Below the pieces are notes generated by a model. The model was not told the origin of the DNA, searched no databases, and saw only the letters and a program-made list of their open reading frames with translations. A stretch of 64,000 bases of DNA from a virus. The translations under genes were made by a program, and so were the position numbers. This document shows, one piece after another, positions 1,885 through 23,880 of this stretch; within the stretch, counting starts at the first letter, position 1, and each line of letters opens with the position of its first letter. The stretch lies in the IMG/VR virus record IMGVR_UViG_3300042396_000723, positions 32,001 through 96,000 of that record, one strand, 5' to 3'.

Positions 1885-1891
1885 GAGGTTA

Positions 1892-2659: not shown

Positions 2660-2695
2660 GTTTTCCTCTTATTTGCTAATGTTTGCAATTCAAAA

Positions 2696-3909: not shown

Positions 3910-3913
3910 TGCC

Positions 3914-4264: not shown

Positions 4265-4500
4265 TATTTAACATCCTCCAGTGATTCAATTGGGGTAATG
4301 GTTGAATCGGAATCGTCACCTTGACCGGGGGGAAGTTGACGATTATTTGTGGCATTTATAGACCCGCCGAACCAATAGGTTAAAGTCCCTACACTTTTCT
4401 CGAATAATGTCTTGATAGCGGTTTCAACTGTCATCCCTCTGACTCCAAAAAAGACAAGTAAAGTTAGCGCAGAAACGAAAACAATTCTTGAGGGTTTCAT
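4264..4500 (-). CDS. small secreted/membrane protein
   Basis: 78 aa with signal-peptide-like N-terminus. Confidence 0.3.
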   Translation of the reverse strand: MKPSRIVFVSALTLLVFFGVRGMTVETAIKTLFEKSVGTLTYWFGGSINATNNRQLPPGQGDDSDSTITPIESLEDVK

Positions 4501-4512
4501 AAGTAAAGGCTC

Positions 4513-5985
4513 CTATTTATTAATTAAGACTTTGGACTGAGAGGACTGAGATAATTGAGACTCCCATGCGGGTTTGAGGTAATTCGTGTAACGCTTGTTA
4601 GTAGAACGCGGCTCTATTCCTAACTCGCTACAAATTTGTTTTAGGGGTGATGGAATCAAACCGTGGGAATATTTAAAAGCCCGAAGTTCAAGAGAAGATT
4701 TAAACAGGGCAGTATTAACCTGCTCCCACCAATCACTATCCGGGTCGGTTGATTTGGCACTGGCAAAGGTAACGTTAAATCCTGATAGGTCAGGAATTGA
4801 AACTACTCTTGATTGCCCTTTGATTGTGCAGATAGCGGGTCTTTTCCCTTCCTTGAGCAACCTTTCAGCTATCTCTATTAACCCCGTTTTCTCCCCTGCT
4901 AAATACCGTAACTGCGATTCAGGGATTGATGGGTAGCAGATTATTAATTGAGCTAAATTTTCCAGTGTTGCCAAAGTAAAACCACCCTCACCGACGGACG
5001 CGGATTGACCCACGGGGATTAACTTAATCTTGTAGCCTCTACCCTGCTTAATGATCTCAATTAGCTTATCGAGCCGGGAATTGGTTTTGTCTGACTTGTA
5101 TCGTTCCACGATACTGTCAAATTCTTCGCAGATTAGGCAAATCGGAGTCAGGTCAACTTGAATTTCTGATATCTTTTTGGCTCCGTTTTTGGCTCCGTCA
5201 ACACAAGCCTTAATCCGTTTATCTAATTGGGCGTGAACGTGATCAATTAGGCTATCAATCTCGTCATCGGGTTGCTTGATCCATTCGGTGTCCAACCCAA
5301 ACCAATTATTAAGATAACCGTCATTATCGGGCTTTCCATAGTTCGGGTCAGCAATAAACAGTTGACCATCGGGGTTATTCTCAAGCCATTGACTGATTAT
5401 CAATCCCAGGAGTTTAGATTTTCCCGACCCCGTGCCACCCGTTAGCCTTTGATGTGGCAACGATAGAAATTCGGATACCCAACCCGAATCATCTTTGATT
5501 GATTGAAACTTAGACTTGATTTCCGGTGGGATAGCGCGGATCAACAGTTGAGATGATTTGGCATAACCTTTTTCTCCAAAGTCCCCTAGACTATCCAAAG
5601 CCTGACCAACTCCCCAAACTGTCCAACTAACTGATTTAGCCAAGGTATCGGGGACGGTGCGGGGTAGATCCTCAAGTTTGACCATAGACTCATCCCCTAG
5701 TATCAACCCCGCTAAAGCACCAAGGCATCCCACGCCCGCTAAATATAGAAGGATTGAATTATTAACGGGTTTACGCTCAATTACCAAAACGCTACCCCAT
5801 TCTCCTTTCTGAGATTGGTGGGGTGAGATACCTTTTAAATCCTCAATCTGAACAGTCGCAGCGCTGAATAAACCAATGGCTGAAAATCCTAAACTTGCTG
5901 CAACGGCAACCCCCCAATTATCCTTAGTGAAGTTATTTGGTCTTGCCATCTTTAGCCTCCTTTTCTGCCAATTGTTTAGCCTCAA
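4513..5985 (-). CDS. FtsK/SpoIIIE-family P-loop ATPase with N-terminal membrane anchor
   Basis: 490 aa; two N-terminal TM segments; Walker A GGTGSGKS followed by LFIADPNYG (FtsK-like hhhhDPK), Walker B LICEEFD, then QGRGYKIKLIPVGQS. Confidence 0.55.
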   Translation of the reverse strand: MRLNNWQKRRLKMARPNNFTKDNWGVAVAASLGFSAIGLFSAATVQIEDLKGISPHQSQKGEWGSVLVIERKPVNNSILLYLAGVGCLGALAGLILGDESMVKLEDLPRTVPDTLAKSVSWTVWGVGQALDSLGDFGEKGYAKSSQLLIRAIPPEIKSKFQSIKDDSGWVSEFLSLPHQRLTGGTGSGKSKLLGLIISQWLENNPDGQLFIADPNYGKPDNDGYLNNWFGLDTEWIKQPDDEIDSLIDHVHAQLDKRIKACVDGAKNGAKKISEIQVDLTPICLICEEFDSIVERYKSDKTNSRLDKLIEIIKQGRGYKIKLIPVGQSASVGEGGFTLATLENLAQLIICYPSIPESQLRYLAGEKTGLIEIAERLLKEGKRPAICTIKGQSRVVSIPDLSGFNVTFASAKSTDPDSDWWEQVNTALFKSSLELRAFKYSHGLIPSPLKQICSELGIEPRSTNKRYTNYLKPAWESQLSQSSQSKVLINK

Positions 5986-6739
5986 GTTCTAATTGCTTTT
6001 GAAGGGCCTCAGTCCGCTTCTGCTGCTCGTAGGTTAAAGCTCTAAGTGTCATGGCAACCTCAGAGAACCGACGGACATCACTCGCCAAAACCGAGACATT
6101 AACAGAGGTAAACTTTAATTGAATTTGATCTGCCGATGTAGTTTCCCAATGGCGTTTTAGTGCCAAAAGATTTCCCCAAACCTCAAACAACAAATCAGCC
6201 GCTTGCTTCCGTTCTTTAGGTGAACCGTTAAATTCTCCCTCTAGCGTAGCTTTATCAAGTTTGTTAGCCAGAAAGTTGATTTTCTTAATCAGAAATAACT
6301 CAATAGAAATGGGTTTCTTTTCAATCTCAGAACGAGCTTGCAACAGGAATGTTTCTGCTACCGCTTCACTCAAGTTGTTAACTTGAAAACCTACCTCGTT
6401 TAATGACTTATCTAATAGCTCATTTCGTGCCATTTCTAAGTCAGGGGATGGTTGAAATTCTCCAGAATTATCATTAGCTTCGGTCGAGGTTTCCCCTGTT
6501 GGTTCTACCGTCATTTGCTGAACTTCGGCACTTTCAGCTACGGGAACGTTAGGAGCAAACTTCTTGATAATTCCTGATTTATTCCCGACTAAGGTAATAA
6601 AACTACAAACTGCAATAACTGTTAGTAAAACCGCTACTCGTTTTCGTGTTTTATTAGGCTTTCTAGGTTCCCTCTGAGTGGCTTCTGAATCCCCACTAAA
6701 AGCTGGTAAGTCATCACTAGGCTGTAAACTGTCTAACAT
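5933..6739 (-). CDS. membrane-anchored coiled-coil protein
   Basis: 268 aa; one TM segment (VAVLLTVIAVCSFITLVG) and coiled-coil-like C-terminus. Confidence 0.4.
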   Translation of the reverse strand: MLDSLQPSDDLPAFSGDSEATQREPRKPNKTRKRVAVLLTVIAVCSFITLVGNKSGIIKKFAPNVPVAESAEVQQMTVEPTGETSTEANDNSGEFQPSPDLEMARNELLDKSLNEVGFQVNNLSEAVAETFLLQARSEIEKKPISIELFLIKKINFLANKLDKATLEGEFNGSPKERKQAADLLFEVWGNLLALKRHWETTSADQIQLKFTSVNVSVLASDVRRFSEVAMTLRALTYEQQKRTEALQKQLELEAKQLAEKEAKDGKTK

Positions 6740-6744
6740 CTATA

Positions 6745-7170
6745 TCAATCTCCCTGTGCATGGTGTGAGGTTTTGATTTTCTGGGCGTTGGTGTTTGGAG
6801 TGGTGTTTTCGGGCGAAAGTACCTTTCCATAGAGTTCAAGGGCTTCAAAGTATTCAGGACTCCCAGGCTGAAGGCAATTCAGGTGATTCTCGGTTGCCCT
6901 TTGGATCAGTTCACCCAACACAAGGTTAAAGTCTGGTTTTGTGTCTGATCTGTTGGGGCTTGTTTCCTTGTTTGATTGGGTGTTATTGCGGGTTGTGATA
7001 GCCAAGAGTGCAGTAGTTGTGGAACTAGCTATTAATCCGATAAAACCCCCGTATTGACCCATTCTAACCTCTGATATTTCCGGTTCTAATGTTAGGGATA
7101 ACAGGACTGAACTAAGACCACCAATCACAGTTCCAACCATGATCGCCTTAACGGGTTCTGGGATTTTCAT
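6745..7170 (-). CDS. membrane protein
   Basis: 141 aa; two hydrophobic segments. Confidence 0.4.
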   Translation of the reverse strand: MKIPEPVKAIMVGTVIGGLSSVLLSLTLEPEISEVRMGQYGGFIGLIASSTTTALLAITTRNNTQSNKETSPNRSDTKPDFNLVLGELIQRATENHLNCLQPGSPEYFEALELYGKVLSPENTTPNTNAQKIKTSHHAQGD

Positions 7171-7460
7171 ATTGATAGTTTTGGGATTGTTCCCTGATTC
7201 GACTAAAAACTACTTGATTGCTAAATATTAAAAACCCAATAAAGAATGCTGTTAAATAATAAATAGTATTCATTAGAAACAACCTCCCATTAAAAAGGGC
7301 ATTACGTTATGTGAGCAGTAAACTCCAAATAGATTAACCAAGTCGATAACGATTCCCACTTAAAACCCTCCCATTAATAATTCTAATTGTTGACTGATTT
7401 CCTTGGGTTGAGGGATTTTTAGGATAACTTCTATTCTCTCAACCCGTGTTTCTAGTTCGT

Positions 7461-7970
7461 TTATTCTCCGAAAAAACTTCTCACAGCTAACTGGGATTTT
7501 TTTGACTTTCCCACCGCTTCGTTAAGTTGCTGTTCTAAAGCCTCAATTGAGATTTCTTGATCAAAGTCTAAGAGGTTTCCTAACTCATCCCCGGACGCTT
7601 GATCAATTGCATTCTTGTACTCAGGAATCCCAACTAATAAAGCCTTGGCGGATTCAATTTCATCGTCTGCAATTTCATTTAAGAAAGCCAATTGTTTTGC
7701 TTTTTTAAATAGTTTAGCATCTTCCCGCCCGGAGTTTTGACCCGCAACAACAACGGCTTTAGTGTTAACAATCGCGTTATCCTTAGCTTTCTTTTGGGTC
7801 TTAACAACTGCATCATTGAGTTGATCTGTTGTACTCCCTTTGGTGATAGCTGATTTAGTCTGCTGTTTCGGCTGTTCCGCCTGGGTTTGGGGTTTCCGTG
7901 AGTTCTGATACAACTCGGTAAGTTCCGGTTGAGTGTTGTTGTCGGTAGCTTGTGATTCTTGATAGGACAT
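7461..7970 (-). CDS. hypothetical protein
   Basis: 169 aa; 5' end overlaps ORF 7855-8328 by 116 nt, so one of the two starts is doubtful. Confidence 0.3.
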   Translation of the reverse strand: MSYQESQATDNNTQPELTELYQNSRKPQTQAEQPKQQTKSAITKGSTTDQLNDAVVKTQKKAKDNAIVNTKAVVVAGQNSGREDAKLFKKAKQLAFLNEIADDEIESAKALLVGIPEYKNAIDQASGDELGNLLDFDQEISIEALEQQLNEAVGKSKKSQLAVRSFFGE

Positions 7971-8328
7971 CGACTTTAAACTCCTTAAATAGTTGGGTTG
8001 TGTTTAGCATTAACATCTTCTGGAAAACTTCTATCTCGATAGATAAACCGTTGTTTAAACAGTGGTGATAGAGGCTTTGGAACTGATAGTAGGTATGGTG
8101 TGGGTATTTGGAACTAACAAAAATATGCAATAGGTACAAGATGTTTAATTCCGCCCAATCAACAGGTTTTCTTGTTATCCCCAAAACCCCTTTTCTGTCT
8201 GCGATTGTCTGGTGGGAAACCTTGAAAATCAACTGAATCTCTTTTGAGGAAAATGGTTCTAAAGCGTTTTCGTCTCTAAGATCTATTGTTTTCCTAATTC
8301 CCCCTTGCCTCGATCTAAAATCGCCCAT
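7855..8328 (-). CDS. hypothetical protein
   Basis: 157 aa; overlaps previous ORF. Confidence 0.25.
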   Translation of the reverse strand: MGDFRSRQGGIRKTIDLRDENALEPFSSKEIQLIFKVSHQTIADRKGVLGITRKPVDWAELNILYLLHIFVSSKYPHHTYYQFQSLYHHCLNNGLSIEIEVFQKMLMLNTTQLFKEFKVDVLSRITSYRQQHSTGTYRVVSELTETPNPGGTAETAD

Positions 8329-8451
8329 TCATGGCTTCCTATAGTCCTCCGTTCTGGGTTTACTCAGGCTTGATTTAACCTGATGTACCAATAGTAAACC
8401 CACCTCTAAGGGTGGGCATAGGGGAAAATACATCTGGGGTGGAATTTGCCA

Positions 8452-8655
8452 CTACTGATTATTCTTTTCCTGCCATTCCATAACATAAAGCGTGTGTTTG
8501 CAAAATCGTTTCAATACATCTCGGTCAACCCATAAGTCCACAAAGGTATTATCTTGATTAATCGTTGCAATACAGTATTGACCATTAAGGTTTTGCCCTA
8601 ATTTTATTTCCCCTTTTAGGTGATGGACTTCTTGAGAGTGTGAATAATTGTCCAT
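8452..8655 (-). CDS. hypothetical protein
   Basis: 67 aa; start overlaps upstream stop. Confidence 0.3.
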   Translation of the reverse strand: MDNYSHSQEVHHLKGEIKLGQNLNGQYCIATINQDNTFVDLWVDRDVLKRFCKHTLYVMEWQEKNNQ

Positions 8656-8852
8656 TATATTTTTCCCTCTGATTGTGCTAACAAACCTAAGTGGCGACGA
8701 AATTGAACGTATTGGGGTTTAGGGTCGTAGCCTTTGCGACGGTGATTTTTTACCGTGTCAGGGTCGGCTCCTGTTAACAATGAAATTTGGTTGATGGATT
8801 TTCCGGTAAGTAAACGAAATTCATCTACAGATAGTTCTTTTTGTGCAAACAT
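8655..8852 (-). CDS. hypothetical small protein
   Basis: 65 aa; first gene after a divergent intergenic region. Confidence 0.3.
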   Translation of the reverse strand: MFAQKELSVDEFRLLTGKSINQISLLTGADPDTVKNHRRKGYDPKPQYVQFRRHLGLLAQSEGKI

Positions 8853-8977
8853 TGTAATAGCCTCAACTGGGTTAAAGAATGGGTTGGGGTGGGGCTGATC
8901 GGCTGATATCCGGTCAGCCCCTTTCAGTATTTGTGTTAATGTTATGCTGATTATATGCTAAACGACATAAAAAAACA

Positions 8978-9229
8978 ATGGACAAAAGGTATAGAATTAC
9001 GATTAAGATCCCTGCGTGGCATAATAAGCGATTAAGGGAATGGGCAGCACTCAAGGGTGTAGCACCCACAACCTTGGCGGGTAACGTATTGCAAGCTCGA
9101 ATAGAAGCAAACGACGAACAAATTGTGGCGATGTTAAAGTCTCGGTCTGAGGATGAAGGATTAACTATTGAGGAATTTATTAAAAAGATTGTCAATGATT
9201 CAGATGATCAAGAAAAGCCCACTAGGTAG
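8978..9229 (+). CDS. ribbon-helix-helix-like small DNA-binding protein (putative)
   Basis: 83 aa; N-terminal RITIKIPAWHNKRLREWAALKGV resembles an RHH beta-strand plus helix; lone plus-strand gene inside minus block. Confidence 0.4.
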   Translation: MDKRYRITIKIPAWHNKRLREWAALKGVAPTTLAGNVLQARIEANDEQIVAMLKSRSEDEGLTIEEFIKKIVNDSDDQEKPTR

Positions 9230-9281
9230 AGTGAGCTTCTTTGGAGTTATCGGGAATAAGGGCAGGAGTTGTAAGATTGTT

Positions 9282-9716
9282 TTAAATAAGACTGTTCAAA
9301 CTATTTACAATTTCTTCCTTATTGATTTCATCATCTACAAATCTTTTTGCATTGATTGAATCAATTAAAAATTGAAAAGCTCTTGATTCAGTAAGATACA
9401 TTGGGATATTTAAAACGTTGTCAAGTTCACCGTTAAATATTTTATTTGCTATTATCACGGCATCCTCAACATTTAGAACGCCATCATGCACCAACAATTC
9501 CACAATGCCAATTAATCCCATGTAGAATCCAGCTTTTAATAAATCCGAATAATCGGGTTTTACTATTTTGGCTTTTTCGTTAATTTCAACCGTAGATTTA
9601 TGAGCTAAACTGTATTCTAAACAGTATTTGAAATTATCTGGGTTCAATTGTGAGAGTAAAATAACGCCTTTTTCACTCACAAACTTTGAGCCAGAATCTA
9701 ATTCTTTAATGTCCAT
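9282..9716 (-). CDS. hypothetical protein
   Basis: 144 aa; AT-rich ORF convergent with the RHH gene. Confidence 0.35.
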   Translation of the reverse strand: MDIKELDSGSKFVSEKGVILLSQLNPDNFKYCLEYSLAHKSTVEINEKAKIVKPDYSDLLKAGFYMGLIGIVELLVHDGVLNVEDAVIIANKIFNGELDNVLNIPMYLTESRAFQFLIDSINAKRFVDDEINKEEIVNSLNSLI

Positions 9717-9829
9717 TTTGTCTCCATAATGTTTCCTGTGGGATGCCCCTACTCTGACGGGAATCAGAAATAGGGGCTTTTAATTTATTTTATCGCCACC
9801 ATTGTCCGTCGCTGATGAAGTCTTGATCG

Positions 9830-10159
9830 TTAGATAAACAAACTTAACTGACCCTCACTAGCAACCGCTTTACGTTTTGGATTGTTCCACGATTCCCCCC
9901 GACTGTTGACACGGTTTCGCCAGTGGGGATAGGTTCTGAACGGTTGTTTCAGTGCCACAAATTTAGGAATCAGTTTCAATTCCTCAAGCCAGATTTTGTA
10001 AGGACTGTATTCCCTGGCTCCGAATGGGTAGCGGTCGTTGCAATACTTCCGGGCATCCTTAGAGTTGATCTCTTCGCTCAGACAAGCGCATTGTGCTTCG
10101 TACTCGATCAAAGAGTCTGCAATCTTTGAGATTGAACAATCGCGCCAAGACATTTGCAT
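9830..10159 (-). CDS. hypothetical protein
   Basis: 109 aa ORF. Confidence 0.35.
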   Translation of the reverse strand: MQMSWRDCSISKIADSLIEYEAQCACLSEEINSKDARKYCNDRYPFGAREYSPYKIWLEELKLIPKFVALKQPFRTYPHWRNRVNSRGESWNNPKRKAVASEGQLSLFI

Positions 10160-10290
10160 TTCAATTCCCTCCAGAATAATAATTCAACCAATACCAAAAC
10201 GTTGTCAGTTGCCACTCGTGGGGTTTTTTACGACTGACAATATTGCGCCATAGTCTGAAGTTGGCTCGAAAGTCACGCAGGCCAGTCCAA

Positions 10291-10572
10291 TCAATCATGT
10301 TTCCTCCTGTGTTTTTTGGGGTTTAGCGATCGCAAATAATCTGCAATCGCTCGGCAATGGTTTGGATCATTAACATCTTCATGACACTGAATCCAATGTT
10401 TAATCAGTGTCAAATTGTAGCCATACCCCGCCCGATTCCCCCCAGGGCGTTTGTAATAATGAATATTTTCGATCCATTTTTTGTGAGAGTGTTTAACGGA
10501 ATCGGGATTTTTTAATCCCAGGAGTTTGACCGCTTCATGTTTGGAGCCAAATTCGTAGGCTGTGGCAATCAT
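10291..10572 (-). CDS. small DNA-binding protein, excisionase/MerR-like HTH (tentative)
   Basis: 93 aa; pattern HYYKRPGGNRAGYGYNLTLIKHWI resembles excisionase-type HTH proteins; weak. Confidence 0.25.
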   Translation of the reverse strand: MIATAYEFGSKHEAVKLLGLKNPDSVKHSHKKWIENIHYYKRPGGNRAGYGYNLTLIKHWIQCHEDVNDPNHCRAIADYLRSLNPKKHRRKHD

Positions 10573-10958
10573 AAACCTTGAATCCTTAACTGAATAGGAA
10601 CCTCGTTAATCTCCAACAATCCTTTTTTAGAAAGTTTTGCCAATTCAACCTGAACATCTTGCACGTCGAATTTAATTTCTTTCTCCTTCCCCAATGGAGT
10701 TACGCCAGAACAGTCAAGTATTGTGATTAGATTTTCTGGTGTAACTTCTAAATCTTTATTGCAGCCATAAAGAAGACGAAGCATATAGAGAATGTAGACA
10801 GATTTGTTTATTCCCCCTGCTATTAAATCCGATTGCAAATTATAAACAGATTGGACTAATTTACCCTGTTTATTCATCACTGTCCCCATATTTTTCTCTG
10901 GGGCTTTTAATTGAATGACGTTATCAATTTCAGTGGTTTCAATTTGTTCAACTTGCAT
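10569..10958 (-). CDS. hypothetical protein
   Basis: 129 aa; start/stop overlap with neighbour. Confidence 0.35.
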   Translation of the reverse strand: MQVEQIETTEIDNVIQLKAPEKNMGTVMNKQGKLVQSVYNLQSDLIAGGINKSVYILYMLRLLYGCNKDLEVTPENLITILDCSGVTPLGKEKEIKFDVQDVQVELAKLSKKGLLEINEVPIQLRIQGL

Positions 10959-15630: not shown

Positions 15631-15909
15631 ATGAAGATTTCAATTTCAGAAGAATTGGATGACATTGGAATGTCCGCCGAAGCATTCCGAGTCTATTTTG
15701 CGATCGTTTGCCATATTGCAAATCACGAGACGTTTCCAACGGTTGATCAAATCACGTCAAAATGTTTTTCCAGACGACGCGCGTCTGGAAAAACGCAGAC
15801 AAGGCTTGCGTTGCGCGAGCTAATTAAGCTCGGTTTAATTAGCGGTGATATCGAAACGGAAAACTATACCTTAGTTCATCCCAGTAAGTGGGAAGTGGGG
15901 GCTGTATGA
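15631..15909 (+). CDS. winged-helix DNA-binding protein (replication-associated, putative)
   Basis: 92 aa; FRVYFAIV...FPTVDQITSKC...RLALRELIKLGLI resembles HTH domains at N-termini of replication initiators; ATGA overlap with next gene. Confidence 0.4.
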   Translation: MKISISEELDDIGMSAEAFRVYFAIVCHIANHETFPTVDQITSKCFSRRRASGKTQTRLALRELIKLGLISGDIETENYTLVHPSKWEVGAV

Positions 15910-17081
15910 AACCATCTATTCTAGCCGCCTTTGCAGAAGCCGTCCCCTATATCCCCGGACTCAGACAGCAAACAGGGAGCGTAGTAGCCACGATTCTTAT
16001 GATGCAACTTGAGTATCGTTTCGCAAAGTATCCAGACGGGTTTTATAAGTTTTTAGAACCCCCTCAAAACGGACATCAGGACTACAGGCTTGGGGATAGT
16101 TGGGTTGAGGAACTCGCTTTTTCTAAAGAAGAATTTAGGACTGGGTTTGACAAGATTGGAGTCCGTTACAACTCCAAAACCCAGTATGACGAAGCAAAAT
16201 CTAGCGGATCGGAATTTGGTTGTAATTACTACTGTTCTTACGTTGACCGGAGGTCGGGGTTAACTTTCTACTTTCGGAATCACAGCAAGGTAGATGAGCT
16301 AATTTCCGATATCGAACCCAGGCAAAAATCAGTGGGTTTTCGCCCACGGAAAACTAGACCCCAAATGGTAGATCCCAATCTACAGGAAATCGGGAATCCC
16401 AATTTACTGAATATGGTAAATCCCAATTTACCATCATCGGGAATCCCAATTTACCAGAGTGGTGAATCCCAATTTCCTATTCCTTATATAGATATTTCAG
16501 AAAAGACTTCAGAAAAGACTCCAGAAAATACCCCCCTTACCCCCCAAGGGGAATCGGAGGAGGGGGGGATTCAGAACGAAGCCGTTTTGATTTCAAACGA
16601 AGACCAGGGGAAAGAGCTTACCGAGGACTCTGCTACACAGCAAAGTCAAAAAGAGAATCACCGACCTGAACAAAATCTTAATCCGGTGATCAGACATTCC
16701 GCCGCCGTCGAGTCCGATCCTCGATTTCTACCAACGGACGCAACAGCAGACAATATGAAAACTTGGAACGCAATTGTGGCGACCGGAGCCATGAGAGGTG
16801 AGCGATCGCCCGACCCTGAGTTTTTGGAATATTACAGGGGGCTATTAAGCAAATGCACTCATTACAGGGGCAAAGACTGTAATTCAAACCATGCCAAATC
16901 TTCCCTTGCTCAGAAATGGAAATCCGAGCCACTAAAAATCCTTGCCGATGCCGAGTCGTGGTTGAAATCAAAAGCCAAGTTTAGCGGTGGCAAATCAACC
17001 CAGACCCGCAATATCAGCGAACTTTCTAGGGATGAACGCCTCGCCATCCTGAGAGCCAAACGCGAACAAAAAGGAGCCTAA
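15906..17081 (+). CDS. replication initiator / replisome organiser candidate
   Basis: Sits just upstream of DnaB; contains five direct repeats (iteron-like) plus an AT-rich stretch; C-terminal half low-complexity. Confidence 0.45.
   Translation: MKPSILAAFAEAVPYIPGLRQQTGSVVATILMMQLEYRFAKYPDGFYKFLEPPQNGHQDYRLGDSWVEELAFSKEEFRTGFDKIGVRYNSKTQYDEAKSSGSEFGCNYYCSYVDRRSGLTFYFRNHSKVDELISDIEPRQKSVGFRPRKTRPQMVDPNLQEIGNPNLLNMVNPNLPSSGIPIYQSGESQFPIPYIDISEKTSEKTPENTPLTPQGESEEGGIQNEAVLISNEDQGKELTEDSATQQSQKENHRPEQNLNPVIRHSAAVESDPRFLPTDATADNMKTWNAIVATGAMRGERSPDPEFLEYYRGLLSKCTHYRGKDCNSNHAKSSLAQKWKSEPLKILADAESWLKSKAKFSGGKSTQTRNISELSRDERLAILRAKREQKGA
16372..16473 (+). repeat. iteron-like direct repeats (putative origin)
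   Basis: Five copies of (G)AATCCCAAT(T)TAC with cores at 16372, 16396, 16420, 16443, 16466 (23-24 bp spacing), followed by AT-rich sequence to about 16530. Confidence 0.5.
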
Positions 17082-17083
17082 CC

Positions 17084-17671
17084 ATGACCGAGCTTAACGA
17101 TGAAATCTTTGATCAGGGAATTGAAAACCTGAAAGAAAATTTTTCCGACGCGATTTTCACCGAACTCAAATATGAAATTTGGTTCGACAAACTCTCTCAG
17201 GAGTTATCAGCTGAAGAATTTGAGACTGCAATCCGTGAGGCAATTTTCAACCTTAGCAAGTGTCCCACGGGAAAAGAGCTTGTAAGCCTCGTTAAAGAAT
17301 CCGAACGTGAGTTAGTAAGTAACTGTTGGTCAAGATGCCTAGAATCGCTTGCTAAACGCCTCCCGTTGAATAATTTAGACGATGCGAGTCAATATGCAAT
17401 CGTTCAACTCGGAGGGATGTCTCACCTTGGGTCGATTGAAAGTACCCAACTCAACTACCTGAGCAACGATTTCAAGACTCATTGGCAAGCCTACCGAAAA
17501 GCCCCGCGAGAATTTGAGCGTCCCACGCAGGTCATCCCCCGTGAGCAAATCGAGTTCAAGCCCAATGGACTCAAGCCACAGATTTCAGAGGAACAGAAGT
17601 TAAAAAATCAGGAATTTCTAAATAACCTGATCGCCACAAAAATGAATAAAAACTTAAATGGAGCGAAATAA
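17084..17671 (+). CDS. hypothetical protein (possible helicase loader by position)
   Basis: 195 aa between initiator candidate and DnaB; stop overlaps DnaB start; no motif recognised. Confidence 0.35.
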   Translation: MTELNDEIFDQGIENLKENFSDAIFTELKYEIWFDKLSQELSAEEFETAIREAIFNLSKCPTGKELVSLVKESERELVSNCWSRCLESLAKRLPLNNLDDASQYAIVQLGGMSHLGSIESTQLNYLSNDFKTHWQAYRKAPREFERPTQVIPREQIEFKPNGLKPQISEEQKLKNQEFLNNLIATKMNKNLNGAK

Positions 17672-18987
17672 TGGAAACAATAATCATGCAAAACGTTGAG
17701 GCAGAACAAGCCGTTTTGGGAGCGATTCTCTTAGACCCCGAAGCTATGGGGCGAGTTGCGGAAACGCTAACTGCTAAATCTTTTTCCCTGCGATCGCATC
17801 AAACAATCTACAAAGCAGCTTTAGCATTACATTCCGAGGGAATAACCACGGATTTAATGACCGTCACTACCTGGTTATCCGATCAGAAATTACTTGAAAA
17901 AGCCGGGGGACAATTAGGATTAACCCAATTATTAGACCGCACAGTTTCAGCAGTTAACATTGATCAATACGGGCTGTTAATTGCCGATAAGCAAACTCGA
18001 AGAAACCTAATTGAATCTGCCCATAAAATTATTGAATTGGCAGAAGATACCAGTCAACCTTTAGAGACAATTCTCCAAAAGTCAGAGGAACAAATTGCTA
18101 ATATTTCCCAATCAAAATCACAACAGGATTTAGTTTCGATTGGTGAAACTTTAATTGATACCTTTCAAGAAATTGAAGACCGGAGCGAAAGCAAGATTCC
18201 CCCCGGTGTCCCCTCTGGATTTTATGACCTCGATGCTATGACTGGAGGATTCCAACACACCGACTTAATTATTGTGGCAGGAAGACCTGCAATGGGCAAA
18301 TCGAGTTTGGCTTTAAATTTTGGATATAACATTGCCAAAAAAGGGCTACCCGTCGCGGTCTTCAGTTTAGAAATGTCTAAAGGTCAATTAGTCCAAAGAC
18401 TATTATCGAGCGAAACCAAAATTGAAAGTACCCGCATTCGTTCAGGAAACATTCAGCAAGAGGAATGGGAACCTTTGACAACCGCAATTAGTTCCTTAGC
18501 AGAATTACCGATTTATATTGACGACACCTCGAATATTACCATCACCGAAATGCGTTCTGAAGCTCGAAGATTGCAAGCCGATAACGATGGAAAGTTAGGC
18601 TTAATTCTAATAGATTATCTGCAATTAATGGACGGAGGAAGTGATAATCGGGTGCAAGAATTGTCAAGAATTACACGGGGATTAAAGGGAATGGCAAAAG
18701 ATTTAAACGTTCCTGTAGTTGTCCTGTCTCAGTTGAGTCGTAGCGTCGAACAGCGCACCAATAAACGCCCAATGCTTTCAGACTTGAGAGAATCGGGCTC
18801 AATTGAACAAGACGCGGACTTAGTAATGATGATCTATCGAGATGATTATTATAATCCCAACACTTCGGACGCGGGAATAGCTGAATTAATTTTAGCTAAA
18901 CATCGCAACGGCCCCACCGGAACAGTAAAGCTATTGTTCGATTCTCAATTTACCCAATTTAAAAATTTAGTACGGGGGATGAACTAA
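17671..18987 (+). CDS. dnaB: replicative DNA helicase DnaB
   Basis: 438 aa; Walker A AGRPAMGKSSLALN, Walker B LILIDYLQLM, and SQLSR/ESGSIEQDAD motifs. Confidence 0.9.
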   Translation: METIIMQNVEAEQAVLGAILLDPEAMGRVAETLTAKSFSLRSHQTIYKAALALHSEGITTDLMTVTTWLSDQKLLEKAGGQLGLTQLLDRTVSAVNIDQYGLLIADKQTRRNLIESAHKIIELAEDTSQPLETILQKSEEQIANISQSKSQQDLVSIGETLIDTFQEIEDRSESKIPPGVPSGFYDLDAMTGGFQHTDLIIVAGRPAMGKSSLALNFGYNIAKKGLPVAVFSLEMSKGQLVQRLLSSETKIESTRIRSGNIQQEEWEPLTTAISSLAELPIYIDDTSNITITEMRSEARRLQADNDGKLGLILIDYLQLMDGGSDNRVQELSRITRGLKGMAKDLNVPVVVLSQLSRSVEQRTNKRPMLSDLRESGSIEQDADLVMMIYRDDYYNPNTSDAGIAELILAKHRNGPTGTVKLLFDSQFTQFKNLVRGMN

Positions 18988-19420: not shown

Positions 19421-19984
19421 ATGACCGCAGCAACCAAGAAGATAATTGAAAGAATCTTAAAAATTGGTGAGTGGGTAGAGATTGACCCACATAAACACCG
19501 CCCATCTTATCTAATAAGAGGTACAGCATGGCGAGTTGAAAGTTTCAATGTATTAAAACAAACCTGTCAAGTAACTAACGAAAAAACCAGATCGGAAACC
19601 CTAGACTTTGAGGAGGTTTCCGACTCATCCCCATTCAAAAAAACAGATATTGTGCAATTAAAAAAGGATAGCCGTTACATCGGACGGGTGATTATGTGCC
19701 GGGGGAATAAAATCAAAATTCAGTGGGCGAAAGGATTGGCAGAATCCTTAGACTCGGACAAGATAAAACTATTTATTCAGATGGTCAAAGGGGAACAAAT
19801 CCCCCTCGGAAATTACGCTTTCCAGAAAGGCGATCATGTCAAAACTACAGACAAGAATTTTGGCAATGTAATCCTCACTGTAAAAGAATGCTTACCCTCT
19901 GGAATGGTGGTGTTGAGTTCATCAAACGATCCTAATTTATTGCTCCCCGGCTGTGGCTTAACAATTGTTGAGGAGGGTTTCTAA
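19421..19984 (+). CDS. hypothetical protein
   Basis: 187 aa; stop overlaps methyltransferase start. Confidence 0.4.
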   Translation: MTAATKKIIERILKIGEWVEIDPHKHRPSYLIRGTAWRVESFNVLKQTCQVTNEKTRSETLDFEEVSDSSPFKKTDIVQLKKDSRYIGRVIMCRGNKIKIQWAKGLAESLDSDKIKLFIQMVKGEQIPLGNYAFQKGDHVKTTDKNFGNVILTVKECLPSGMVVLSSSNDPNLLLPGCGLTIVEEGF

Positions 19985-21015
19985 TGCCAACATTCGCAAC
20001 ATTATTCATGGGCGGAGGCGGTGCAGATTTGGGGTTAGAGGCCGCAGGGTTTAAGTCTTTATGGGGAATTGAAAGAGATCCTAAAATTGCAGAAGTAGCA
20101 CGATTAAATTTCCCAAATACCAAAGTATTTAATTCTTGCGCAGGAGACATAAACCCCCGCAGTCTTCCCTATGTTGACCTGCTTTGGATGAGTCCCCCGT
20201 GCCAACAGTATTCAAACGCTAGACGGGGTAATTTAGGCGATCACAAAGACAAGGACGCGGGGCTGTACTGTAGCAGTTATATCGCAGCGATTGATCCTCG
20301 ATGGGTAGTTTTAGAAAACGTCCCTGGCTACTCAAAATCACCTGTATTCGAGAAAATCCTACAATCCTTAATTCGCCACGGATATCGCTATCATTGGTTA
20401 ATACTTGACGCGGCGGATCACGGGGTTCCCCAAAACCGGAAACGGTTGATTATGTGGGCAGTTAAAAATGATCAACCTCTCCCCTATTTCCCCGAATCAA
20501 AACCCAAAAAGGGATGGTATCAAGCCATTGCTGACTTAATCCCAGAAATGCAGGACTGTGAGCTTGCAGACTGGCAGATTAAGCGACTAAATGAATTGGG
20601 TTATTTACCAGAAAAAGCCTGGATTGATATTGGGAAACAACTCATTAGACAGGCTACAGTTCGGGAGTCAAACGATCCAAGTTTTACTATTGTGAGTGGT
20701 CATGTTAACTCGCATTCTCCTATCCTGTTAATCCCCCGAGCGGGAGCTTGCATCAAGAATATTCTCCCGACTCCACAGAACAAACCCTGCCCAACAATTC
20801 GAGCTATGAAGGATGTTTCAACCCATTGGGCGGACATCGTGCAGGGAAGCCAAATTAAACGAATTAGTCAGAAAGCGACGGCACGGCTCCAGACTTTCCC
20901 CGACTCCTATCAATTCCCAGAATCCAAAACTTTAAGCCAACAAATAATAGGAAACGCCGTGCCTCCGTTATTGGCTAAAGAATTAGGTCTGGCAATCTTA
21001 AAATCAATTAACTAA
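19984..21015 (+). CDS. DNA (cytosine-5)-methyltransferase
   Basis: 343 aa; motif I FMGGGG, PC motif SPPCQQYS, ENV motif LENVPG. Confidence 0.9.
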   Translation: MPTFATLFMGGGGADLGLEAAGFKSLWGIERDPKIAEVARLNFPNTKVFNSCAGDINPRSLPYVDLLWMSPPCQQYSNARRGNLGDHKDKDAGLYCSSYIAAIDPRWVVLENVPGYSKSPVFEKILQSLIRHGYRYHWLILDAADHGVPQNRKRLIMWAVKNDQPLPYFPESKPKKGWYQAIADLIPEMQDCELADWQIKRLNELGYLPEKAWIDIGKQLIRQATVRESNDPSFTIVSGHVNSHSPILLIPRAGACIKNILPTPQNKPCPTIRAMKDVSTHWADIVQGSQIKRISQKATARLQTFPDSYQFPESKTLSQQIIGNAVPPLLAKELGLAILKSIN

Positions 21016-21017
21016 CC

Positions 21018-21461
21018 ATGAAAACATCAACTAAAGCCAAAACCAAACCCGCTAAAAAAGGATTTCAACCCGCCCCTAAAATTCATGACAATGACTTACA
21101 TATATTTTCTTGTGAGTGCCTTTGGTATGACTCAGAAACCGACGAGGAACTATTGACCGAATTGTGGACAGTCAAACTCGATAAACGACGGTTTCGGACT
21201 GATGTCAGGCAAGCCATTATTACGGGGTTGATCTATTGCTTTCTTGAAACACCGGAAGCAACGGAACGGCATATTAACAGGGTGTTTTTTTGGAATAATA
21301 AATCCCGTGCCTATGAGCCATTAGGGGCGGTGTCTGACGCGCCGATGGACGGATCTAGTCCGGTTGATTTTGAAGCCGATCCGGTGGTGGCTTATGAGCG
21401 ATTAAAAGCCCTTTGTGTCGAGATCGAAGTTATCAAGGTTGACGATTGCTTTTGCTCTTGA
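21018..21461 (+). CDS. hypothetical protein
   Basis: 147 aa. Confidence 0.4.
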   Translation: MKTSTKAKTKPAKKGFQPAPKIHDNDLHIFSCECLWYDSETDEELLTELWTVKLDKRRFRTDVRQAIITGLIYCFLETPEATERHINRVFFWNNKSRAYEPLGAVSDAPMDGSSPVDFEADPVVAYERLKALCVEIEVIKVDDCFCS

Positions 21462-21485
21462 CCTTTTAAAAATACACAAATAAAC

Positions 21486-21514
21486 TTGTTTTTTTTGCGT
21501 TATTTGTGTATAAT
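21486..21514 (+). promoter_or_regulatory. sigma-70-like promoter candidate
   Basis: TTGTTT (21486-21491), 17-bp spacer, TATAAT (21509-21514), preceded by TGTG; followed by about 260 nt of non-coding sequence. Confidence 0.4.
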
Positions 21515-21781
21515 GAAAACAGTCAAGAATCAAGGTTTACCAATGTAGTTTGTTGGTAAATAGTTAACCAGTCTAAGCTCTTTACTGAGCTACGTTATTG
21601 GGAAGTGTTTAAGTTCATACCTTGGGATGCGTTGCCAGTTCCAAGCTCTATAACTAAGTGATTAAACAGATGTACAGCAATTAAGTCAGCAATACTGCTG
21701 ATACCCTCTTAATAAGCAGCGATTTCCCACAAATCCCCATAATCTGTTATAACTGGTGAGTAGTTATATGAGGTTGTTTTT

Positions 21782-21982
21782 ATGGTAAGACCCCACGAAC
21801 ACAGGCAAGAAATCAAAGCCAGACTCAAACCAGAAGATAGGGAGAAGTTGAAAGCCCTCGTCGTTGGCATGGGTTATCGTTATTGGAGGCAGGAGTCACC
21901 GGAACCCGCATGGACTGAGTTTTTGGAGGCGATCGCAACGGGCGATATAATTCTTTACAAAAAAGTCGGGGGAGGGGGTTGA
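21782..21982 (+). CDS. hypothetical protein
   Basis: 66 aa. Confidence 0.3.
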   Translation: MVRPHEHRQEIKARLKPEDREKLKALVVGMGYRYWRQESPEPAWTEFLEAIATGDIILYKKVGGGG

Positions 21983-22043
21983 CCTTTTGGGATAAGTGGG
22001 GTACAGTTATAAATGTAGAAGGTTGAAATAAAGGAACAAGACG

Positions 22044-22274
22044 ATGACCACTCAAACCGAGCCAACTAAAATTTACTGCGACCGGAAATTTTCACTTTAC
22101 GACGTAACACCCTGGACAGCCGCAAGGCTGACGAATTTCTTTAACTTGGTTGACGATGGTGAAGACGTGAAACGTGCCGTCAATGGGTTGAAAACCTGGA
22201 AAGGTAGTCAGTCCTACCGCTTGACAATGAGTGACAAAGCTTCGATTGATTACGTTATTGAATGCTACGGTTAA
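22044..22274 (+). CDS. hypothetical protein
   Basis: 76 aa. Confidence 0.35.
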   Translation: MTTQTEPTKIYCDRKFSLYDVTPWTAARLTNFFNLVDDGEDVKRAVNGLKTWKGSQSYRLTMSDKASIDYVIECYG

Positions 22275-22342
22275 AGATTAATTAACCGAGTAAGGTGGCT
22301 GCCCTACTCGGTTCGAAGTCAATCATTTAAGAGGAGTATACC

Positions 22343-22852
22343 ATGTCAAGCAAAAAACAGGTCAAGCAATCTTTAGAACTGACACTAAGTTTAGCCGAAT
22401 CACTAGGGCCATTAACACGGTCAGAAGCTAAAGAGTTTTTTGGATTATTGGGAGAACTCAATAAAGTTTTCAGTAAAGTAGTTGACCCCGATGCTCACGG
22501 CCTAAAACCCGAACCCAGTCCCGAAGTAGTTAAACACCCCATTGATGCCCTACTCAAAAAAGGAAAGGTCGAACTACCAGAGGGACGCTACAAACAACTG
22601 ATTCAGATTCATGACGAGCTTTTAGTCCTCAAGATTAAATTCTTGAGTGCGAAGCAAAATCAGAATGTCACCTGGTTCCCCCTTGAGTGGAACGGGGATA
22701 AGTCAGCCGCGTTGTACTTGTCATCGTCGGAATGGTCTATAGCTCCCATCAAGTACCGAGATGACAACGATTTGACGGGCGAGTGGGAAGGATTTGATCT
22801 TACTGAGTTCATGAGTATGAACTGCCCAGAGTTTGATCAAGACGAATATTGA
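22343..22852 (+). CDS. hypothetical protein
   Basis: 169 aa; AGGAG upstream. Confidence 0.4.
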   Translation: MSSKKQVKQSLELTLSLAESLGPLTRSEAKEFFGLLGELNKVFSKVVDPDAHGLKPEPSPEVVKHPIDALLKKGKVELPEGRYKQLIQIHDELLVLKIKFLSAKQNQNVTWFPLEWNGDKSAALYLSSSEWSIAPIKYRDDNDLTGEWEGFDLTEFMSMNCPEFDQDEY

Positions 22853-22904
22853 TTTCATGGGAGGTCTTACCCTCCCTCCAAGAAGTAAAGCAGGAGAACA
22901 AATT

Positions 22905-23063
22905 ATGCTATATCGCATCACCCGAATCAAAACCGCACCCGACAGAAAAGACCGTCAAGGGTATTATTTAGAAGCCTTGAATGAGTTAGAGGCTTTGACA
23001 AGATTTCATAACCAATTCCCTGAATTTGTAGGGGAAGAATTAGAGTTAGAGGAATGGAATTAA
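22905..23063 (+). CDS. hypothetical small protein
   Basis: Start moved to ATG 22905 (MLYRIT..., AGGAG upstream) from track start 22833. Confidence 0.3.
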   Translation: MLYRITRIKTAPDRKDRQGYYLEALNELEALTRFHNQFPEFVGEELELEEWN

Positions 23064-23088
23064 AAGACCTCTAATTCAACTTAAAACT

Positions 23089-23118
23089 AACCAGGGGTTT
23101 ATATTCCCTGGTTTTTTG
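23089..23118. terminator. intrinsic terminator between convergent genes
   Basis: Stem ACCAGGG / CCCTGGT with 9-nt loop, followed by TTTTTTG. Confidence 0.6.
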
Positions 23119-23122
23119 CTGT

Positions 23123-23719
23123 TTATCTAATCACAGGGACAGGAATAATCCCCATCAGAATGCCAGATATTTCCTGAAACATTCGCGTAGTTGTTTGCGT
23201 TGCGTCAATTATAATCCAGTTATTTTGCCTAGCCAATTCCAGATATCCGAAGCGAACCCGATCTAAAAAAAGCAAGTCTCGTTCAACCTTGTCCAGAGGT
23301 TTGTCGAGATCGCGGCGCACCGCCACCTCAACAGGACAATCGAACAAAATCACCATATCGGGATCAATTCCCCCCGTCGCCTCGTGATTTAGCTTCCTTA
23401 AATTATCTAAATTAAGCCCGTGCCCATATCCCTGATAGGCAAGTGTTGAATCCGTGTATCGATCACACAATACCAAATCAGAATCTTCTAACAAATATCT
23501 AATCGTGGGATTGTGTTTAATCCTATCCTTCAGGATTAATTTAAGCTGCTGCTCCGGCGTTAAACACCCATTCTTTAATTCAAAACGAACGTCATAATCG
23601 CAGGGTTCTCTTGTGATGTAGAACTTTAACTTTAACGCCGTGAAATGGTCGCAAAGTTTTCTAATTTGGGTTGTTTTCCCACTGCGGTCAATACCTTCAA
23701 AAGCAATCAATTTACTCAT
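23123..23719 (-). CDS. tmk: thymidylate kinase
   Basis: P-loop FEGIDRSGKTTQ and DRY motif CDRYTDSTLAYQG; start placed at ATG 23719 (MSKLIAFEG), overlapping the stop of the upstream small ORF (ATGA). Confidence 0.85.
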   Translation of the reverse strand: MSKLIAFEGIDRSGKTTQIRKLCDHFTALKLKFYITREPCDYDVRFELKNGCLTPEQQLKLILKDRIKHNPTIRYLLEDSDLVLCDRYTDSTLAYQGYGHGLNLDNLRKLNHEATGGIDPDMVILFDCPVEVAVRRDLDKPLDKVERDLLFLDRVRFGYLELARQNNWIIIDATQTTTRMFQEISGILMGIIPVPVIR

Positions 23720-23880
23720 TTCATCCTCATCCAATTTTTAATCAAATCATCTTTAATCATACCTTGCCTTATTAATTCAATTATATATTCTCTAGCTTCC
23801 TCCAGTGTCAATATATCCACATTACGTTTAATTATCGCAAGTTTAAATTCTTGCTCCATTGTTAGCTGTGTTGGTTCCAT
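23716..23880 (-). CDS. nblA: NblA-like phycobilisome degradation protein (not in ORF track)
   Basis: My own translation: MEPTQLTMEQEFKLAIIKRNVDILTLEEAREYIIELIRQGMIKDDLIKNWMRMK (54 aa); matches the NblA pattern L-[ST]-x-EQ-x-F ... RQ-x-M and NblA length. Confidence 0.5.
   Translation of the reverse strand: MEPTQLTMEQEFKLAIIKRNVDILTLEEAREYIIELIRQGMIKDDLIKNWMRMK

Follow-up and report, generated by a model that had tools for sequence, protein, structure and literature searches.

A gene for a Dcm-type C5 cytosine methyltransferase lies among the replication genes of a virus that was analysed here over a window of 64,000 nucleotides, the window being the whole stretch of DNA under study. The questions raised by this locus are whether the enzyme acts alone or together with a restriction endonuclease, which sequence it would methylate, and what use the phage would make of it. 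A first-pass annotation had taken the gene for an orphan methyltransferase whose target could include the CGATCG core of HIP1. Of that reading, the enzyme class and the lack of a partner enzyme stood up to the present analysis, whereas the CGATCG/HIP1 target found no support in homology.

The methyltransferase and its setting in a PaV-LD-like phage

The gene and the conserved motifs of its product are located as follows, with residue conservation taken from 56 homologs.

19984..21015, + strand, C5 cytosine DNA methyltransferase gene, 343 aa, ATG start; uninterrupted ORF, matched by PF00145 and TIGR00675
20005..20022, + strand, motif I FMGGGG, AdoMet binding, aa 8-13; F8 and G10-G13 kept in at least 90% of the homologs
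20194..20205, + strand, motif IV PPCQ with the catalytic Cys73, aa 71-74; P71 and C73 invariant
20314..20322, + strand, motif VI ENV, aa 111-113; E111-N112-V113 invariant
20431..20445, + strand, motif VIII QNRKR, aa 150-154; R152 and R154 invariant, Q150 kept in at least 90%
20950..20967, + strand, motif X GNAVPP, aa 323-328; G323 and N324 invariant

The assignment to the Dcm-type C5 methyltransferases had been made from the FMGGGG, PCQ and ENV motifs. All three were found again, and three profile collections agree with it. Pfam PF00145 matches the 343-aa protein over profile positions 3-323 of 324 (E 3.3e-54; 184.9 bits, the curated cut-off being 22), TIGR00675 (dcm) scores 137.6 bits and so exceeds its cut-off of 100.65, and PHROG 116 'DNA methyltransferase' is matched with E 1e-68, values that place the predicted family membership far beyond chance. 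The best PADLOC profile is PDLC03378. The C5 motif set I, IV, VI, VIII and X is present in full and in canonical order. The AF2 model (pLDDT 86.6, pTM 0.85) has two domains, and in a Foldseek search it retrieved M.HhaI, M.HaeIII and DNMT1 at E ~1e-21 with TM 0.67-0.72; the modelled fold is M.HhaI/M.HaeIII-like, with a Rossmann-like catalytic and a small target-recognition domain, and is of low confidence at residues 210-243. The gene is confirmed as a predicted intact, full-length C5 cytosine DNA methyltransferase gene.

The window itself is, as judged from its sequence, that of a PaV-LD-like Planktothrix cyanophage. It aligns with PaV-LD in blocks at 67-97% nucleotide identity and encodes the phage families portal, capsid, terminase, protease and endolysin. 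The methyltransferase is the ortholog of PaV-LD ORF010R (YP_004957283.1; 85.5% amino acid identity over the full length), which is already annotated as 'DNA methyltransferase', and the two genes share their position after DnaB as well as their flanks, with homologs of ORF009R (76%) and ORF011R (89%) on either side. They differ in a HIP1 site, which is present in the ORF010R gene and missing from the window gene, and in that the PaV-LD locus runs on into an integrase/PAPS-reductase segment without a match in the window. Further orthologs occur in dozens of PaV-LD-like metagenome contigs (52-94% identity), and no close copy was present in 185,579 species-representative genomes, where the best matches reached 26-33%. 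More distant relatives (38-57% identity, in three contexts) are found in phage replication modules with DnaB, SSB, ParB-like, Thy1 and PAPS reductase genes, and no restriction gene lies near the methyltransferase in any of the three.

Fold, motifs and size are shared with the solitary Dcm-type methylases that PHROG 116 groups from temperate and virulent phages, such as the cytosine methylase of Nostoc phage N-1, and so are the orphan status and the location among early or replication genes. The window methylase is nevertheless only 26-31% identical to those of isolated phages other than PaV-LD and has a variable region of its own. A look through the literature found no report on the activity or target of PaV-LD ORF010R or of the window methyltransferase. 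The gene adds one more copy of an orphan Dcm-type phage methylase that had been annotated before.

Four features upstream bear on how the gene would be expressed.

15888..17081, + strand, counterpart of the PaV-LD gene annotated as replication initiation protein; DNA match only over the gene start
17671..18987, + strand, DnaB-like replicative helicase, anchor of the replication module; PF03796 (E 9e-109), PF00772, PHROG 19
19421..19984, + strand, 187-aa ORF directly upstream of the methyltransferase, ortholog of PaV-LD ORF009R (76% amino acid identity)
19970..19977, + strand, Shine-Dalgarno-like GAGGAGGG, 6 nt 5' of the methyltransferase ATG; read off the sequence, putative function

The location in a 'replication block', as it had been called, is correct: the replication initiation counterpart, a DUF6475-like ORF, DnaB, a 142-aa ORF, the 187-aa ORF, the methyltransferase and a 147-aa ORF follow one another in a tight run on the + strand. 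The start codon of the methyltransferase overlaps the stop of the 187-aa ORF (TAATG, 19982-19986), and the two genes are apparently translationally coupled. The 187-aa ORF has no family match in Pfam, PHROGs, NCBIfam or PADLOC. Searches for promoters and terminators near the methyltransferase gave no signal above shuffled background that would mark a separate transcription unit, and the packing of the genes suggests that it would share transcription and translation with the early replication genes.

Search for a restriction partner

The gene that follows the methyltransferase had been named as the one that could prove to be a cognate restriction enzyme.

21018..21461, + strand, 147-aa ORF, ortholog of PaV-LD ORF011R; begins 2 nt past the methyltransferase stop

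The earlier statement that no restriction endonuclease adjoins the methyltransferase holds, as Pfam, PHROGs, NCBIfam and PADLOC gave no nuclease match for the 142-, 187- and 147-aa ORFs on its flanks or for four small ORFs further downstream. The other 81 ORFs of the window include no restriction enzyme, HNH nuclease or second methyltransferase according to Pfam and PADLOC; this search covered the 64-kb window, ~31 kb of the phage genome lie outside it, and many of the ORFs are without an assigned function. The annotation of the 95-kb PaV-LD genome likewise contains no restriction enzyme. No partner can be found, and the methyltransferase is an orphan within its flanking genes and the 64-kb window.

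The 147-aa ORF had been singled out as worth testing for nuclease motifs, and no nuclease signal emerged from profiles, structure comparison or a search of 1.84 billion proteins. It has no match in Pfam, PHROGs, NCBIfam or PADLOC, and its homologs (n=26) all go with PaV-LD-like relatives. The AF2 model of the protein, of reasonable confidence (pLDDT 77.7), found nothing better than E 0.38 and no nuclease fold when compared with the PDB by Foldseek, and in the BFVD structure search it retrieved PaV-LD ORF011R and nothing else. The exhaustive profile search of the 1.84 billion proteins matched the protein's own small phage family only. A lone 1042-aa match in that search appears by its sequence to be a TPR-like repeat protein and is probably spurious.

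One may still ask whether the methyltransferase and the 147-aa ORF make up a small restriction-modification or addiction unit in which the small protein is a novel endonuclease, given that the genes are 2 nt apart, that both co-occur in the PaV-LD-like contigs examined, and that the small protein has invariant acidic and Lys/Arg residues. We regard this as highly improbable. Apart from the missing restriction-enzyme or nuclease profile match, the failure of the model to find a nuclease fold and the mere handful of small phage proteins returned by the profile search, the pairing itself does not persist: in one distant phage contig three genes and 2.2 kb separate the 147-aa homolog from the methylase, and this homolog is absent beside two further relatives and from 80 of 80 cellular loci. 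This broken linkage in distant relatives, together with the profiles, AF2/Foldseek, BFVD and the profile search, led us to reject the 147-aa ORF as a nuclease. A type II restriction-modification pair was rejected on the grounds that no linked endonuclease was found and that the linkage between methyltransferase and 147-aa ORF is lost in more distant relatives.

Target recognition and the HIP1 element

The specificity of the enzyme would reside in one part of the protein.

20476..20847, + strand, variable target-recognition region, aa ~165-288, from the alignment; starts with the clade-typical element GWYxAIADLIP...WQxKRL

Alignment and AF2 model agree on just one variable stretch, ~120 aa long, as would be expected of a monospecific enzyme. 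The Bacillus phage methylases of SPR, phi3T and rho11s are also phage-encoded orphan C5 enzymes, serving self-protection, but their long variable region is built from several target-recognition modules in tandem. In the window enzyme the variable region is single and short, and identity to the phi3T enzyme is ~26%, which sets the window enzyme apart from the multispecific SPR/phi3T type.

Comparison with characterised enzymes gave little guidance as to the target. The variable region alone had no match among PDB sequences even at E 10, and when motifs IX-X were included these aligned with PDB entries while the recognition region did not. Foldseek with the whole model could not separate HhaI-like from HaeIII-like. 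The best 120 homologs and the cluster members carry generic names only, without specificity, and the gene neighbours of the three distant relatives offered no restriction gene from which one could be suggested. The catalytic domains of M.HaeIII (GGCC) and M.HhaI (GCGC) align with that of the phage enzyme (E 1e-15 to 4e-20; model TM ~0.7), but both belong to restriction-modification pairs, whereas no partner was found for the phage enzyme, and their recognition regions are without sequence similarity to its own. In the comparison with solved enzymes M.HaeIII aligned over the full length, which brought up GGCC as a candidate. GGCC is an unattractive specificity for the phage enzyme because the site is ~7-fold depleted in the phage; it is an unlikely target also in view of a 5-10-fold depletion in every flanking context and of recognition regions that do not align between M.HaeIII and the phage methyltransferase.

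If methylation protects some sites against host restriction alongside the purging of others, the target would be expected among the C-containing sites that have been kept. Candidates are CCWGG (80 in the window versus 71 expected), GCWGC/GCNGC (GCWGC, 70 versus 71), GATC-containing sites (GATC, 231 versus 237) and CGATCG/HIP1 (CGATCG, 24 versus 10), none of the counted sites being depleted, and possibly also CCGG.

The proposal that the enzyme methylates CGATCG, the HIP1 core, or the full GCGATCGC, leaving a host-like m5C that would serve escape from PvuI/XorII-type restriction or the maintenance of HIP1, draws on the site counts. HIP1 occurs 23 times in the window versus 0.4 expected (~50-fold enriched) and 46 times in PaV-LD versus 0.6 expected, and is among the few C-containing palindromes that the phage has kept. 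CGATCG is the sole over-represented G+C-rich palindromic hexamer in the window and lies inside HIP1 in 23 of 24 cases, and 16 of the 17 HIP1 sites that can be aligned between the window phage and PaV-LD are conserved. The more distant relatives of the methyltransferase are all found in HIP1-rich DNA, in two cases together with a D12-class, Dam-like methylase, a combination that mirrors the cyanobacterial orphan pair of GATC and CGATCG methylases (Elhai 2015, PMC4390886). The HIP1 richness may, however, merely reflect the cyanobacterial host, and CGATCG outside HIP1 is depleted (1 versus 6-9 expected in the window; 2 versus 8-11 in PaV-LD), which is unexpected were every CGATCG protected.

Known m5C CGATCG methyltransferases are DmtC, M.Ssp6803I and M.XorII (Elhai 2015, PMC4390886; Hagemann 2018, PMC6105098), and these have the C5 superfamily, the orphan status as in cyanobacteria and the HIP1-rich DNA in common with the phage enzyme. 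The reference group to which the latter was compared is a probable CGATCG group, the one that agrees best with Elhai's account of these enzymes, and was reconstructed from distribution, gene context and CGATCG depletion, not from a named M.Ssp6803I, DmtC or XorII sequence. Its members are ~405-470 aa long, orphan and very widespread in cyanobacteria, and in other bacteria they come with a type II restriction enzyme of 265-279 aa; in bacteria with that pair no palindromic hexamer is more depleted than CGATCG (18 versus 52, P 4e-8). Identity to the phage methyltransferase is 25-29% for 17 members of this probable group, compared with 42-82% inside it, and falls to 15-22%, the random level, in the variable region. 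The phage protein is shorter (343 aa), with a variable region ~70-80 residues shorter and unrelated, and the best PADLOC profile of the group is PDLC03326 and not PDLC03378. These differences indicate that the phage methyltransferase is not a member of the DmtC/M.Ssp6803I/XorII group as so reconstructed, and in the PDB comparison its recognition domain resembles no enzyme of established specificity. The HIP1 core as target, put forward in the first-pass annotation, is in our estimate unlikely. Improbable, too, is a phage-specific HIP1 methylase that would read CGATCG or the 8-bp GCGATCGC through a recognition domain not related to that of DmtC-type host enzymes. If true, it would explain why CGATCG survives almost only as HIP1 in palindrome-purged genomes, and the phage itself would maintain the HIP1 epigenetic mark of its host.

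Site avoidance and a probable protective role

The phage shuns palindromes to an extreme degree. As many as 39 of the 64 palindromic hexamers are seen at most once in the window, and the median ratio of observed to expected counts is 0.10 for palindromic versus 0.97 for non-palindromic hexamers. GGWCC and RCATGY are both absent from the window, with ~71 and ~59 copies expected, respectively. Few genera have as many restriction-modification systems per genome as Planktothrix (PMC8262939).

The explanation that we favour, and consider fairly probable, is that the gene encodes a solitary, monospecific C5 methylase by which a PaV-LD-like cyanophage protects itself, the 147-aa ORF not being its partner. 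Most likely it is an early-expressed self-protection methylase that covers an unpurged site. By analogy with its family, Cys73 would attack C6 of a flipped-out cytosine in an AdoMet-dependent reaction yielding 5-methylcytosine, and newly replicated phage DNA would become methylated at one short recognition sequence. The modified base would most likely guard the phage against one of the host's numerous type II restriction enzymes, and the methylase would complement what appears to be the main anti-restriction strategy, the near-complete loss of palindromic restriction sites. Methyltransferase activity, target sequence and protective effect are alike what we infer. It may be that the host simply does not restrict the sites left undepleted, and the methylase would then lack anything to protect; GATC and CGATCG could, moreover, already be methylated by orphan enzymes of the host.

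A methylation that is regulatory or serves phage DNA metabolism, as a packaging mark or in the timing of expression, or that counters a defence other than restriction, would fit the position of the gene in the replication module after DnaB, and not in a recognisable anti-defence island, and the like placement of the distant relatives in replication modules; an extra protective methylase may also seem redundant where site avoidance already escapes most restriction. Early expression with the replication genes would, however, be needed equally by a protective methylase, and solitary phage C5 methylases with a reported function are generally described as protective (PMC4916379). A regulatory or metabolic role is on balance improbable, and self-protection remains the preferred reading.

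The methylase gene is in itself of little importance, but it serves as a marker for the way in which PaV-LD-like phages deal with Planktothrix, having purged nearly all palindromic sites and kept one C5 methylase. Once established, its target would point to the host restriction activity that site avoidance cannot evade, and were this target HIP1 after all, the enzyme would provide an experimental handle on a long-unexplained element. The target thereby bears on phage-host dynamics in harmful blooms and on the genetic tractability of Planktothrix.

The methylase gene and its product

The window encodes a protein of the Dcm-type C5 methyltransferase superfamily whose catalytic apparatus is intact, and the protein would be expected to be active. 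Its ORF is uninterrupted along the whole length of 343 aa, with the following immediate context.

19970-19977 (+), GAGGAGGG, preceding the methylase ATG
19984-21015 (+), methylase ORF, 343 aa
21018-21461 (+), downstream ORF, 147 aa

The methylase ATG and the TAA stop of an upstream 187-aa ORF have one base in common (TAATG), and only 2 nt separate the methylase stop from the ATG of the 147-aa ORF. The FMGGGG, PPCQ and ENV motifs picked out in the first-pass annotation are all in the protein, QNRKR and GNAVPP were additionally found, and the order of the motifs is canonical for C5 cytosine methyltransferases. The whole of profile Pfam PF00145 is covered (E 3.3e-54), the score against TIGR00675 (dcm) exceeds the curated cut-off, and there are matches to PHROG 116 'DNA methyltransferase' (E 1e-68) and to PADLOC type II methylase profiles, with PDLC03378 on top (E 1.8e-57). 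Across 56 aligned homologs, which go down to 33% identity, there is no variation at the catalytic Cys73, E111-N112-V113, R152, R154 and G323-N324. The AlphaFold2 model based on this alignment is confident (pLDDT 86.6, pTM 0.85) and was matched by Foldseek to M.HhaI, M.HaeIII and the DNMT1 catalytic domain (E ~1e-21, TM 0.67-0.72). The agreement of profiles, motifs and model confirms the initial C5 methyltransferase call.

Phage origin and distribution

The window phage is a relative of the Planktothrix phage PaV-LD, with a DNA identity of 88% around the methylase gene and of up to 97% in structural gene blocks. PaV-LD ORF010R is a full-length ortholog of the methylase (85.5% identity), labelled 'DNA methyltransferase' in RefSeq and 'site-specific DNA methylase' in GenBank; this annotation has been in place since the genome was deposited, and no published target of ORF010R was found in the literature. 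ORF009R and ORF011R of PaV-LD have their orthologs in the flanking ORFs of 187 aa and 147 aa, respectively, and the identical gene arrangement is seen again on freshwater metagenome contigs. In a homology search, several dozen clusters, from contigs as long as 109 kb, were 52-94% identical to the methylase. By contrast, when 185,579 species were scanned with one genome each, the closest homologs were only 26-33% identical and no Planktothrix chromosomal copy turned up, and among isolated phages a close homolog is found in PaV-LD alone, the next being that of Nostoc phage N-1 (31%). Within the Dcm superfamily, the methylase thus falls in a clade restricted to phages.

With respect to the PaV-LD record, the order of the window is a circular permutation, in that 214-10658 corresponds to PaV-LD 83.6-92.8 kb and the sequence from 15218 on matches PaV-LD from 1.2 kb on. 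Nothing in the window matches the ~5-kb PaV-LD segment after the 147-aa ORF (ORF012R-ORF020R, including integrase and PAPS reductase), the place of which is taken by ~1.7 kb of small unknown ORFs (21447-23132); the other contigs L003 and L004 have kept an integrase at this point. The DnaB helicase of the window (17671-18987, +) has 438 aa and is without intein, its PaV-LD counterpart ORF007R has 579 aa, and in the metagenome variant L005 DnaB reaches 867 aa and carries an intein with a LAGLIDADG homing endonuclease. Two genes lie just past the replication block, as in PaV-LD ORF021L/ORF022L.

23123-23734 (-), thymidylate kinase gene
23716-23880 (-), 54-aa NblA-like phycobilisome-degradation gene

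Elsewhere in the window (e.g. 46182-49463 and neighbours), six ORFs match PHROG 16619 ('minor head protein') and five match PHROG 33618, an indication that these structural genes are paralogs.

The search for a restriction partner

The 147-aa ORF had been named as the possible cognate restriction enzyme, and neither profiles nor structure gave any nuclease signal for it. Pfam, PHROGs, NCBIfam and PADLOC contain no match to it. The model, of usable quality (pLDDT 77.7), runs from a pair of long beta strands through two helices and two further strands to a final helix and strand; the best PDB match reaches only E 0.38 and no nuclease fold was retrieved, no PDB structure is a neighbour of the core that is modelled with confidence, and a viral structure library returned PaV-LD ORF011R alone. 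Only 26 homologs were found, nearly all 59-100% identical and one 49%, which sit on PaV-LD-like contigs wherever context was read. The family profile, run exhaustively against 1.84 billion representative proteins, retrieved the family itself, fragments, one distant 128-aa member and one weak match, a 1042-aa protein (E 5.5e-4) with TPR-like repeats by sequence that is probably spurious. On one phage contig that is more distant, with a methylase 57% identical, the 147-aa homolog lies 2.2 kb off with three genes between, and it is missing in two further relatives and in all 80 cellular loci. This very small, phage-restricted family has C32, E33, D42-E43-E44, R84, N87-R88 and W92-N93-N94-K95 as invariant residues.

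The upstream 142-aa and 187-aa ORFs gave no nuclease signal either. The scan was then extended to the rest of the window, with another 81 ORFs that do not overlap and have 70 aa or more. Pfam assigned 17 families to the 82 ORFs, including that of the methylase, the others having phage structural, replication and lysis functions; PADLOC found no restriction enzyme family among the window ORFs, and the annotation of the whole PaV-LD genome contains no restriction enzyme. As judged by sequence analysis of the window, beyond which lie ~31 kb of genome, the methylase is solitary, and the original view of it as an orphan stands, with no restriction partner among the flanking or other ORFs of the window. 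A type II restriction-modification pair was rejected since no restriction enzyme was found in the window, and a multispecific enzyme of the SPR/phi3T type was also rejected. Solitary phage methylases are a familiar category, to which this enzyme belongs, and the finding is real but ordinary.

Other window ORFs match the PADLOC profiles mad8 (two ORFs, best E 2e-7), BstA (5e-10), 'HTH' (2e-14) and 'Unk_01' (9e-14). No counterparts of the PaV-LD anti-restriction candidates, Lar-like ORF107L and the methylases ORF117R and ORF029L, were found inside the window.

Site avoidance, HIP1 and the candidate target

Palindromic hexamers are strongly avoided in the window, where 39 of 64 are present once or never. 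Their median observed/expected ratio is 0.10, against 0.97 for sampled non-palindromic hexamers, and 58% of them reach less than a tenth of the expected count, versus 1.7% of the non-palindromic hexamers. The degenerate sites GGWCC, RCATGY, ACRYGT, CYCGRG, GRCGYC, RCCGGY and GGYRCC are typical of cyanobacterial enzymes. The first three occur 0, 0 and 1 times in the window (71, 59 and 59 expected) and the last four twice each (30 expected), while GGCC occurs 18 times (121 expected). PaV-LD (NC_016564) has the same avoidance pattern, a genome context that indicates restriction pressure as the main force at work. Planktothrix is reported to be one of the genera with most restriction-modification systems per genome (PMC8262939). 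The C-containing sites CCWGG, GCWGC/GCNGC, GATC and TGATCA are found at normal frequency, as is CGATCG in the form of HIP1, and CCGG is only mildly reduced in the window. GGCC is an unlikely methylase target, being 5-10-fold depleted in all flanking contexts.

The 8-bp cyanobacterial element HIP1, GCGATCGC, is present 23 times in the window (0.4 expected, ~50-fold enriched), positions including 1215, 3985, 10326, 17790, 21929, 33252 and 62182, and 46 times in PaV-LD (0.6 expected). Sixteen of the 17 sites alignable between the two are conserved; no papers on HIP1 in PaV-LD-like phages were found in the literature. Twenty-three of the 24 CGATCG sites in the window are HIP1, and with HIP1 masked CGATCG is depleted as other palindromes are, both in the window (1 vs 6-9 expected; Poisson P ~0.001) and in PaV-LD (2 vs 8-11; P ~0.001). 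Of the HIP1 variants with one mismatch, 6 of 13 in the window and 5 of 13 in PaV-LD are GCGATTGC or its complement, GCAATCGC, small numbers from non-independent genomes; in both, the inner C of CGATCG has undergone a transition, and M.Ssp6803I methylates the outer C.

The first-pass annotation had proposed the CGATCG core of HIP1 as a possible target. The cyanobacterial m5C methylases of CGATCG (DmtC, M.Ssp6803I), which are mostly orphan, belong with M.XorII to a single coherent group of orthologs (Elhai, PMC4390886). Here, the most probable counterpart of this group was rebuilt from the genome scan by its distribution, gene context and CGATCG depletion. It comprises C5 methylases of ~405-470 aa, 42-82% identical, from cyanobacteria, where it is extremely widespread (4522 matches, E < 1e-40), proteobacteria and a few other bacterial lineages. 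The cyanobacterial loci have the methylase by itself. Seven loci from diverse non-cyanobacterial genomes (L072, L064, L026, L063, L066, L067 and L010) have it (~400-480 aa) directly followed on the same strand by a 265-279-aa ORF; a single one of these ORFs was tested, and it matches a type II restriction enzyme profile of PADLOC (E 1.7e-130). CGATCG occurs 18 times in these seven loci (52 expected, P 4e-8), and none of the other palindromic hexamers, 56 of which could be tested in all, is as significantly depleted. The rebuilt group is probably the XorII/DmtC system, whose description it fits.

Sequence comparison places the phage methylase outside the CGATCG group as rebuilt here. Identity is 25-29% overall and 15-22%, the random level, in the variable region, which is far shorter in the phage enzyme and has no detectable similarity to that of solved methylases; the top PADLOC profiles also differ. 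Homology therefore lends no support to the HIP1 proposal, and the depletion of HIP1-masked CGATCG is contrary to blanket protection of this site. That the methylase modifies the HIP1 core thus seems improbable, even though the HIP1 signal of the window is striking, recognition domains of different origin are able to share one target, and two distant methylase relatives are accompanied by a Dam-like D12-class methylase, recalling the cyanobacterial pair of GATC and CGATCG methylases.

The analysis shows the family of this methylase, its intact catalytic apparatus, its solitary status within the window, its phage-restricted distribution and the site statistics. The simplest reading of its role, in which we infer activity, timing of expression, protection and candidate targets alike, is protective marking at a retained site. 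The enzyme would be co-expressed with the replication genes and would mark newly made phage DNA at one retained C-containing site, and this methylation may cover a host enzyme whose site the phage genome still keeps. The interest of the methylase lies mainly in its target and in the genome-wide context of sites.
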